Positions 21,483 through 47,590 of a DNA stretch of 64,000 nt are shown here, piece by piece; positions within the stretch are counted from its first letter, which is position 1, and each line of letters starts with the position of its first letter. A program made the translations under genes and the position numbers. A model generated the notes under the pieces. The model was not told the DNA's origin. It did not search any database and saw only the letters and a program-made list of their open reading frames with translations. The DNA is taken from the IMG/VR virus record IMGVR_UViG_3300014208_000028, positions 1 through 64,000 of that record, one strand, 5' to 3'. This DNA comes from a virus.

Positions 21483-21574
21483 TTACATTATTTATATACC
21501 ATATTATTTCAAAAAATATACAGCTAAAAAAGGGCTAGTAAATATTTCTATTTAATAGCCCTCCAGTCGAAAAA

Positions 21575-22695: not shown

Positions 22696-22761
22696 TTTAA
22701 TTTCCTCCTACTACTTTTATAACTAAAAAAAAGAAATTATTGCTAATTTCTTTTTAAAATT

Positions 22762-22894
22762 TGGTGGGAAGAGTAGAGACTTGCACTCTACTTTTAGTAG
22801 TTGTCGATATCACTTTCTACTAAGTTTTATGGGCTTTCTGTTTACCACCAACATCCTATTATCGGACTAAGGTTACGCCCTAAATTACCTTCCC
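22762..22894 (-). ncRNA. tRNA-like RNA 2 (133 nt, expanded core)
   Basis: GGGAAGG/TCTTCCC+A+CCA; T-arm GTAGAG-TGCAAGT-CTCTAC; followed by a terminator at 22725-22755. Confidence 0.7.
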
Positions 22895-23337: not shown

Positions 23338-24299
23338 TTATAATTGCTCTAATATATCTATTACATCAGAAGTATAATTTAATCTAAGTAAATTACGCTC
23401 GTCCGTAGATAAATCATCCCACCTCAACCCGGCTAAAATATTTATAAATAAATTATTAGCCCGACCTTTTTGACTATTAGATAAATCTACTTTAGATATA
23501 TCTATACTATATGCTGTAGAAGACATTATATCCTCCATTATTTTTATGGCTTCCTCGCTACGACTCGAACGTAAATTAATAAGTCCAAGGCCTATTGTCC
23601 TACCATTAGACGACGAGGAAATAATTAGTCTTTTATATCCTCATATCCACTATTAATTTCGGCGGGCAGATCATTATAGAGATCTTTAATTAATAACATA
23701 TAATCTATTTTATTAAAATTATCTTCATGATCCCGCGCATAATCTAACTTAAATTTAATTTTTTTAAGTAAATTATTATAAATACTTTCAGTAGTAGCTA
23801 TAATAATTTCTTGAGTCTGTTTTTCACTATCAGATAATTCCATTTAATCTTCCTTATTTATAACTATATCTACTCCATTATACTCTTTCTGTAACATGAT
23901 AATTTTAGCATACTCAATAGCACTACTCTCATTATCGAATATTAAATTTAAATTAACTTCCTCATTACGCTTATTATTATGTTCATCTGAATATCTTATA
24001 TTATAGAAAATTTCAGTAACATTATTATTTAATTTAGTGACAGCCTTACTAGAAATGGAGCCGGAATAGATGATGGATTTATTAATAGCATCTTTATACG
24101 CCATTCCTAATTTAGAATGATATCCACTCCCACACTCATTGCAGATATACTTTACACCCTTTACAGTAATAGTATAATTACCCTTACATACAGGACAAGC
24201 AATCTCTACCCGCTTTTCATTTAATTTAATAAAAAATACTTTATCTCCAATATAATACCCTAACATAGACGGTTTTTCAGAATTCTTTTTCGCAGTCAT
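23338..24299 (-). other. Hypothetical ORFs (23338-23538, 23625-23843, 23844-24299) around tRNA-Gln
   Basis: Co-oriented with RBSs. Confidence 0.65.
23547..23620 (-). tRNA. tRNA-Gln(UUG)
   Basis: TTCCTCG/CGAGGAA+G+CCA; ATAGG-CCTTGGA-CTTAT (C33); T-loop TTCGAGT. Confidence 0.88.
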
Positions 24300-25133: not shown

Positions 25134-25215
25134 GTATAAAGTATTTCTACTTCACATTAATATTATAACACCTTATTTAAATTTTTTGCACTTTAGATAA
25201 TTACTAATCTATATT

Positions 25216-27881: not shown

Positions 27882-29243
27882 TCAAAGGCCTTCACGGTTA
27901 AACAGTTTAAATGTCTTTTCCCACAACTCGCTTTTTTCTTTAAGCAGATAGAATTCTACTTCCTGTAAAGCCTCTATCCTAGTAGTTACTTTCCCTTCAA
28001 GCTGTAAATCTTCTATATGCTCTAGAATAAATTTAAACTTAGGCCCAGGAGTTAATCCTCTGGCGATTAAGTCATTGCCAGTAATTAATCTAACAGGATG
28101 TACTTTTTCAGGGTTTTGTTTAAACTCTTCTATCTTGTCTTTACAAAAGTTATAAGTTTCCAATCTACCCCCACTACTTTGAGCGTCTGCCTTATGAAGT
28201 AAAAGCATGTCATCAATAAACTCTTGACGCAGAAATCTTTTAAGTCTGCTAGTTCTCATATCTTTAGTACAATCAAACTTCATATGCTGACTAACCAAAG
28301 TAGCTACGTACCCTATTTCTTCGTTAGAAAACTTATAATCAGTTAAAATTCTTTCTGCTTCTTTAGCCCCCACAGAATCGTGCTGAGAGAATCTAATCCG
28401 ATCTTCAACCGTCCGCGTTAAAGGTTTACCAACATCATGTAAAAGACCGGCCAATTTCAAAAGAGGATGAGCTTTATCCTTATGTAAAATATCTAATACT
28501 TCCAACGTATGCCTATAGACATCTCCTTCAGGATGAAATTCGGGTGGTTGAGTACAGCCAATCATATTAGATATTTCAGGAAGTAAGATATTCAATAGGC
28601 CCAACTCTTTTAATAACTGAATACCTCTTTTAGGATCTGCTTCTAAGATTTTAAGTAATTCATCTTTAAGCCTTTCCTTAGAAATATGAAGTATTCCCTC
28701 TCTGCAAGCATATATAGCTTCAGCCGTGGCTTTATCTATAATAAAGTTAAACCTACAGGCGAATCTAACCGCCCGCATCATACGTAAATAATCCTCTCTA
28801 AAACGCTCTACAGGCTCTCCTATGGCCCTTACAGCCCCTAATTGGATATCTACTATGCCTTCAACTTTATCGTAGATTTTACCGTCCTCATCCATATAAA
28901 GCCCGTTTATAGTAAAATCGCGCCGAGAGACATCTTCTTCAATACTTTTAGCATATTTAACTATTTCAGGTCTACGCCCATCATAGTTAGATTCTGTTCT
29001 ATAAGTAGCTACTTCGTATTGAACTTTATTCAATACTACAACTACTACCCCGAATTTTTCGCCAACTAATAAAGTATGTTCAAAAAGCTTATTAACTTCT
29101 TCTGGAGTAGCATTCGTTACTATATCGTAATCTTTAGGCTCTGTACCAAGAAAAGTATCTCGTACACAGCCTCCGACTAAAAAACTCTCAAAGTTATTAG
29201 CTTTGAGAGTCTCCATAATAACCTTTACATCATTCGGAATCAT
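27882..29243 (-). CDS. cca: CCA tRNA nucleotidyltransferase with HD domain
   Basis: VGGCVRD, DYDI, RRDFTIN, EDYLRMMR, HPEGDV..H, LLHDVGK. Confidence 0.92.
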   Translation of the reverse strand: MIPNDVKVIMETLKANNFESFLVGGCVRDTFLGTEPKDYDIVTNATPEEVNKLFEHTLLVGEKFGVVVVVLNKVQYEVATYRTESNYDGRRPEIVKYAKSIEEDVSRRDFTINGLYMDEDGKIYDKVEGIVDIQLGAVRAIGEPVERFREDYLRMMRAVRFACRFNFIIDKATAEAIYACREGILHISKERLKDELLKILEADPKRGIQLLKELGLLNILLPEISNMIGCTQPPEFHPEGDVYRHTLEVLDILHKDKAHPLLKLAGLLHDVGKPLTRTVEDRIRFSQHDSVGAKEAERILTDYKFSNEEIGYVATLVSQHMKFDCTKDMRTSRLKRFLRQEFIDDMLLLHKADAQSSGGRLETYNFCKDKIEEFKQNPEKVHPVRLITGNDLIARGLTPGPKFKFILEHIEDLQLEGKVTTRIEALQEVEFYLLKEKSELWEKTFKLFNREGL

Positions 29244-47371: not shown

Positions 47372-47590
47372 ATTACTTATATTATAACATTAATTCTATA
47401 ATAATTTCAGCTATCATTACCAGCCCGCCCAAAAAAACGGTGCCGATTAAAAATGATTTATTAGAGAATATGCTACCATTTTCTTCCTGTACCATAAAAT
47501 TTATATTCAATACTTTCTGTATAAATAGAAGTACTGATAATATCTCTATACAAAATATAGAACTTACACATAATGCTTTTAAAAATATAA

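Follow-up and report, generated by a model that had tools for sequence, protein, structure and literature searches.

Location and predicted fold of X133

The window examined here is a 64,000-nt stretch (positions 1 to 64,000) of a 199,871-bp IMG/VR phage record with 32.5% G+C (IMGVR_UViG_3300014208_000028), in which nearly all phage genes lie on the minus strand. On this strand lies X133, a putative 133-nt RNA gene at 22762-22894, with G1 at 22894 and base 133 at 22762; RNA positions are counted from G1. X133 is preceded by the ORF of P0001 (22903-23325, minus strand), a 140-aa protein matching phrog_16527, and is followed by an intrinsic-terminator-like hairpin with a U-tract (22725-22755, minus strand) and, just downstream, by the ORF of P0002 (22411-22695, minus strand), a 94-aa cysteine-rich protein.

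The structure of X133 was assessed from its sequence, its minimum-energy fold and its predicted pairing probabilities. The acceptor stem pairs RNA 1-7 (22888-22894) with RNA 123-129 (22766-22772) through seven pairs, the last of them G.U (mean probability 0.87), and is followed by the discriminator A130 and an encoded CCA at 131-133 (22762-22765). The T arm (RNA 104-122; 22773-22791) consists of a six-pair stem, 104-109/117-122 (probability 1.00), and the 7-nt loop UGCAAGU, which has U at loop position 1 and A at loop position 5, the places of U54 and A58. The acceptor and T helices abut and thereby form 13 stacked pairs. The anticodon-arm position is occupied by a 7-bp arm with a 16-nt interior (RNA 72-101, 22794-22823; helix 72-78/95-101, probability 0.96), and the D-arm position by a long irregular hairpin domain (RNA 11-69; 22826-22884). 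The helix closing this domain, 11-18/61-69, has 8 bp and a single bulged A (probability 0.99 for its inner part) and encloses a 42-nt interior; the domain contains the hairpin 28-31/39-42 (probability 0.94 for 28-42). The minimum-energy fold has a predicted energy of -37.9 kcal/mol (z-score -2.85), and 2 of 200 shuffled sequences were equally stable. When 100-nt flanks were included, the acceptor stem was lost from the minimum-energy structure. The pairing probabilities predicted for X133 contained no D-loop partner for the T loop.

These results confirmed the tRNA top half that an initial annotation of this DNA had reported at 22762-22894, namely a 7-bp acceptor stem, a 6-bp T stem with a TGCAAGT loop and an A-CCA end, and placed it on the minus strand; they also confirmed the terminator behind it, a 12-bp hairpin with a U-tract six bases past the CCA (-8.8 kcal/mol, z-score -2.67). 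The closing helix, the GTCC/GGAT hairpin (28-31/39-42) and the TTAGTAG/CTACTAA arm that it had listed were likewise part of the minimum-energy fold. The hairpin that it had called D-loop-like (42-45/53-56) did not hold up: it shares U42 with the hairpin 28-42, costs +6.3 kcal/mol relative to the minimum-energy fold and has a predicted probability of about 0, because the pairs 22-24/46-48 (probability 0.91) compete with it. The predictions suggest that a single hairpin, long and irregular and with 12 unpaired nt bulged out, more likely fills the D position.

The apical loop of the arm at the anticodon position carries the self-complementary sequence GAUAUC (RNA 84-89; 22811-22806), which could in principle permit loop-loop dimerisation of X133.

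Gene organization around X133

P0001 and P0002 are 207 nt apart, a space taken up by X133, the terminator and a ribosome-binding site. The TGA stop codon of P0001 lies only 8 nt before G1, which leaves X133 without room for a promoter of its own, and the promoter motif TGNTATAAT was absent upstream of X133; lacking its own promoter, X133 would have to be cut from the operon transcript. The same transcription unit also holds a tRNA-Gln identified by ARAGORN (23547-23620, minus strand), placed 4 nt past the stop of one ORF and 8 nt ahead of the start of the next, which indicates that tRNA-processing enzymes already make cuts in this operon.

The extended -10 motif TGNTATAAT was found on the minus strand at 21493-21501, 25162-25170 and 47381-47389, and lies 9-29 nt upstream of tRNA-Lys, tRNA-Leu and tRNA-Val. 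This placement indicates that most tRNAs here are separate promoter-to-terminator units, with tRNA-Gln and X133 alone set within an mRNA operon. On its 3' side X133 has the same succession of CCA, AAUUU, hairpin and U-tract as tRNA-Lys, and its terminator is about as strong in predicted energy as those after tRNA-Lys (-9.0 kcal/mol), tRNA-Leu (-9.9 kcal/mol) and tRNA-Arg (-10.2 kcal/mol). CCA is encoded by seven of the ten phage tRNA genes and not by the other three. The phage also encodes a tRNA nucleotidyltransferase, or CCA-adding enzyme (27882-29243, minus strand; phrog_2244, E = 1.7e-81), and an RNA ligase. Pfam and PHROG searches with the proteins neighbouring X133 returned no informative match, and P0002 had no relatives among 5.8 billion protein clusters (ORFan).

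Comparison of X133 with canonical tRNAs and known RNA families

X133 retains the 7-bp acceptor stem, the discriminator base and the CCA end of a canonical tRNA. Its T arm has a stem of six pairs rather than five, with U54, C56, A57 and A58 present and G at position 55. The canonical D arm (3-4 bp stem and G18 G19 loop at positions 10-25) and the canonical anticodon arm (5-bp stem and 7-nt loop with U33 and R37) are both missing; in agreement with the initial annotation, which had seen no canonical anticodon loop, neither of the two interior 7-nt loops has U33 or R37. ARAGORN detected no tRNA, intron-bearing tRNA or tmRNA in X133. Rfam release 15 gave no match in the window at gathering thresholds or at the X133 site at E values up to 10, and none of its tRNA-clan families matched X133. 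The earlier description of a CCA-ended RNA that sets a tRNA top half on a non-tRNA core is thus supported, with no assignment to a tRNA, tmRNA or Rfam family.

An intron-bearing tRNA that splices to a normal cloverleaf had been named as an alternative, and was rejected: none of 2070 variants of X133 with a single segment deleted (0-79 nt) passed ARAGORN at default settings. Only a lowered threshold produced a weak tRNA-Ser(CGA), which depends on a mismatched stem in competition with the 7-bp arm. The earlier conclusion that X133 is not a tmRNA also stood, as G3 pairs with C, and neither ARAGORN (-m) nor Rfam gave a tmRNA match. A YrlA-type (Y) RNA was rejected since the genome has no Ro60 gene (TROVE, PF05731), and Rfam gave no match to this type. 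tRNA-Sec shares a 13-bp acceptor/T stack with X133, but the stack is split 8+5 or 9+4 in tRNA-Sec and 7+6 in X133, which also has no UCA anticodon loop and no match to the Rfam tRNA-Sec family. A role as an antisense regulator was rejected as well, with complementarities of only 11-13 nt within the genome, near the chance level.

Frequency of tRNA top halves in the genome and in shuffled sequences

We scanned both strands of the whole 199,871-bp genome for tRNA top halves, defined as a perfect 7-bp acceptor stem, a 5- or 6-bp T stem with a 7-nt loop, and N-CCA, with 20-160 nt allowed between the 5' strand of the acceptor stem and the T arm. The null consisted of 40 dinucleotide shuffles of the genome, scanned on both strands. 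In the shuffled genomes, top halves with six or more G-C pairs occurred at a rate of 0.05 per genome, and none of these (40 shuffles) also had the U..A T loop; long top halves of X133 quality occurred at 0.025 per genome. The real genome contained nine top halves with at least six G-C pairs: seven of the ten tRNAs, X133 and a second non-tRNA element, X100. In 1.65 Mb of unrelated phage loci, the same scan returned true tRNAs and two other matches, a CCA-ended minihelix and a match antisense to T4 tRNA genes. The excess over shuffled genomes and the clean scan of other phage loci indicate that the top half of X133 is real.

The minihelix lies in an unrelated phage (IMGVR_UViG_3300033068_000375; locus L034, 8019-8186, minus strand), where an uninterrupted 13-bp hairpin with a canonical T loop is followed by N-CCA; it is a tRNA acceptor/T-arm minihelix.

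A second tRNA-shaped RNA in the same genome

X100 is a 100-nt tRNA-shaped RNA (9729-9829, minus strand) recognised by the top-half scan, its fold and its encoded CCA. It has the T loop UGUGAGU and an 8+5 stack that includes a G-1:C73 pair, and its predicted fold is a class II-like cloverleaf, in which the D arm has 3 bp, the "anticodon" hairpin closes on a loop of only 3 nt and the variable-type arm is long. The G-1:C73 pair directly before the CCA resembles tRNA-His, which is absent among the ten tRNAs of the phage. X100 is co-transcribed with tRNA-Arg(UCU) (9647-9723, minus strand; ARAGORN), from which it is separated by the 5-nt spacer AAUAC; an identical spacer stands between tRNA-Val and tRNA-Thr. 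A -10 box lies 6 nt upstream of the first base of X100. With its own -10 box and no mRNA upstream, X100 at least is made for its own sake.

A T loop of the form UGYRAGU is common to X133 and X100 and occurs in none of the ten phage tRNAs; similarly, both RNAs have 13 stacked layers, compared with 12 in all ten tRNAs. The initial annotation had claimed that the two RNAs share this T loop and a 13-bp acceptor and T helix. The shared loop was borne out, and the 13-bp helix applies to X100 only if G-1:C73 is counted (8+5, compared with 7+6 in X133). The predicted duplex energy between X133 and X100 was within the range of shuffled sequences.

Comparison with the stable RNAs of phages T4 and T5

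tRNA-shaped small stable RNAs of T4 and T5 have been known for about fifty years without a function. The closest of these to X133 is the T4 species 1 RNA, rnaC (139 nt; NC_000866, 70908-71046), which together with rnaD stands just after tRNA-Arg(UCU) in the T4 tRNA cluster. Both are stable RNAs whose roles are unknown (PMC3014915), and both have been confirmed by Northern blot (PMC9697503). Our alignment of rnaC from five T4-like phages gave a consensus fold with 19 covarying pairs. In this fold, two conserved U.U mismatches interrupt the acceptor-like helix; the other parts are a hairpin that is long and variable, an arm of 10 bp whose hexaloop is invariant, and a T arm of canonical form. rnaC and X133 are alike in having an acceptor helix, a long irregular hairpin where a tRNA has its D arm, a second arm immediately 5' of the T arm, and the T arm itself. 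Both lack an anticodon loop and are embedded with tRNA genes, with which rnaC is processed. They differ in that rnaC has a canonical 5-bp T arm and loop, U.U mismatches and no encoded CCA, whereas X133 has a 6-bp T stem, the UGCAAGU loop, a perfect acceptor stem and an encoded CCA.

Homology of X133 to rnaC was rejected. A covariance model built from the five rnaC family members and run over the whole window with filters off matched neither X133 nor X100 up to E = 10, and R1, a single-sequence covariance model of X133, gave rnaC a score of 14.6 bits, no different from that of ordinary T5 tRNAs. The relationship between X133 and rnaC is one of likeness, not membership. A 5-bp helix, AGUAG/CUACU, occurs in the arm of X133 at the anticodon position (22823-22794), in the acceptor stem of X100 (9828-9822/9738-9732) and in the conserved arm of rnaC (locus L059, 2909-3047); this may be a coincidence in AT-rich DNA.

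T5 RNA1 and RNA2, annotated as "tRNA-like stable RNA with unknown functions" (NC_005859), resemble X133 in their length (125-144 nt), their location in a region of tRNAs and small ORFs, and their combination of an acceptor stem, a T arm and a structured insert. In contrast to X133, they keep a normal D arm (next to U8/N9) and a canonical T loop. Homology was rejected here too, as R1 did not single them out. In mascRNA/MALAT1 and the 3' tRNA-like structures of plant viruses, RNase P, CCA enzymes and synthetases are recruited through a CCA-type acceptor end together with a mimic of the T arm (PMC4810234); these belong to eukaryotic or RNA-virus settings and are unrelated to X133 in sequence.

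The general kind of X133 is thus not new, since T4 and T5 already have such RNAs. With X133, their body plan is found in a 200-kb phage that is uncultured and unrelated to them, here combined with another T loop, 13 stacked layers and a CCA that is already encoded; the shared plan suggests that a useful shape was either reached by convergence or kept from very early on. At present X133 is one more unconserved example, which adds breadth and not mechanism.

Search for relatives of X133

The sole other copy of X133 was on a Logan contig (SRR18595301) that is 100% identical over 6.4 kb, and this identity indicates the same phage. A blastn search of X133 against GenBank phages returned only chance matches of 19-33 nt, and the exact 3' 30-mer of X133 was absent from IMG/VR. 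A two-loop pattern matched at least 115 rows in IMG/VR, and among the 80 listed loci screened with R1 none matched; in the JGI metagenomes, two patterns gave no matches and two chance matches in GC-rich contigs, respectively. The anticodon stem-loop of the tRNA-Arg next to X100 had no match in IMG/VR.

Relatives of the neighbouring and terminase genes were also followed. Those of P0001 were at most 52% identical and belonged to unrelated phages, with no such RNA beside them. The nearest terminases were about 50% identical, and the corresponding region of their genomes is rearranged and without the 19-43 kb block; terminase relatives in IMG/VR were at most 41% identical. R1 found nothing in the relatives' loci or in five whole IMG/VR records, its one borderline match being an ordinary tRNA-Gln. 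In the nearest large relative (JGI 3300041085 Ga0452209_000028; locus L018, 7190-7560, plus strand), a TGTTATAAT promoter is followed by about 330 nt free of ORFs, with several G/C-rich hairpins and a U-tract and no match to an Rfam family; this stretch is a candidate structured RNA.

Proposed explanation and alternatives

On balance, and with some reserve, we favour the explanation that X133 is a real phage small-RNA gene, whose product is a tRNA-shaped RNA that cannot read codons, is cut out by tRNA-processing enzymes and acts in trans. Its top half is found beyond chance, with 0.05 cases expected and two non-tRNA cases observed per genome, and its layout is that of a tRNA gene, with the tRNA-Lys-like 3' flank and a tRNA-Gln in the operon. 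The features of X100, the CCA-adding enzyme and the RNA ligase also argue for this explanation, as do the interior helices, with predicted probabilities of 0.9-1.0, and rnaC, a proven stable RNA of the same layout. The lack of a homologue in the phage and metagenome sequences searched, the lack of a predicted D-loop partner and the loss of the acceptor stem with 100-nt flanks argue against it.

The elbow of the tRNA is the point from which RNase P, RNase Z and CCA enzymes measure, and these enzymes are also recruited by tRNA mimics (PMC4810234). Their recognition of X133 is assumed, because of the G at the U55 position and the six-pair T stem. X133 would come last, before the terminator, in the transcript of the unit ORF151 - ORF72 - tRNA-Gln - ORF66 - P0001 - X133 - terminator. 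Host RNase P would recognise the 13-layer stack, the T loop and the A-CCA end, and would cut 8 nt past the P0001 stop codon to leave G1. The terminator trailer would then be trimmed back to the encoded CCA, an end that the phage CCA-adding enzyme could repair. We infer that the product would be a stable 133-nt RNA with four arms, namely the acceptor, the irregular hairpin, the over-long arm without an anticodon loop and the T arm. Its most likely action would be in trans, tying up a protein that recognises tRNAs by their acceptor/T-arm half, and candidate partners include a synthetase, a tRNA-end-modifying or tRNA-cleaving host defence enzyme, and the CCA enzyme; specificity would be supplied by the non-tRNA core. 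A partner found for any such RNA would open up the study of non-translational uses of the tRNA fold in phage-host conflict.

The initial annotation went further and proposed a class of phage tRNA mimics, an interpretation that is partly supported: two RNAs do share distinctive features, but both lie in one genome and the sequence, pattern and synteny searches returned no homologue. A developed form of this proposal is that X133 and X100 constitute a separate class of CCA-ended phage tRNA mimics, marked by the 13-layer stack and the UGYRAGU loop, whose features bar translation and allow charging or acceptor-end binding, and which act with the CCA-adding enzyme and the RNA ligase of the phage against a host defence enzyme directed at tRNAs, either as its decoys or as its inhibitors. 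We regard this as speculative and doubtful.

Alternatively, X133 could be a cis-acting processing signal, whose fold has the sole task of guiding RNase P to the 3' end of the P0001 mRNA. Cleavage there would part the mRNA from the terminator hairpin and set its lifetime, and the 133-nt piece would be a jobless by-product, comparable to mascRNA from MALAT1 and the t-elements of plant mitochondria. The promoterless position of X133, starting 8 nt past a stop codon in an operon already punctuated by tRNA-Gln, fits such a signal, and tRNA mimicry for end maturation is documented (PMC4810234, PMC1920247). A minihelix would suffice for this task, however, whereas X133 keeps about 90 nt of well-paired interior. 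Its encoded CCA protects the released RNA and not the mRNA, and X100, with its own -10 box, has no mRNA upstream to be processed. We therefore consider a processing signal rather unlikely.

X133 might also be a decayed tRNA gene, with insertions in the D and anticodon regions, that is no longer functional. Pseudo-tRNAs occur in phage tRNA clusters, and one tRNA of T5 is flagged as a pseudogene; the non-canonical T loop, the missing anticodon loop and the restriction of X133 to one phage (among the GenBank phages searched) agree with decay. Yet all 13 pairs of the top half and the CCA are intact, although neutral decay would hit these too, and none of the 2070 single deletions restored a cloverleaf. 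Moreover, X133 and X100 depart from the ten tRNAs in the same ways (T loop; 13 versus 12 layers), and the interior of X133 is more stable than that of shuffled sequences, which makes decay an unlikely origin. That X133 is a fold arisen by chance in the 3' untranslated region before the terminator, as is conceivable for a single genome with AT-rich DNA, is very improbable given 0.025 long top halves of such quality per shuffled genome and the coincidence of the U..A T loop, the exact N-CCA spacing and the tRNA-like 3' flank.
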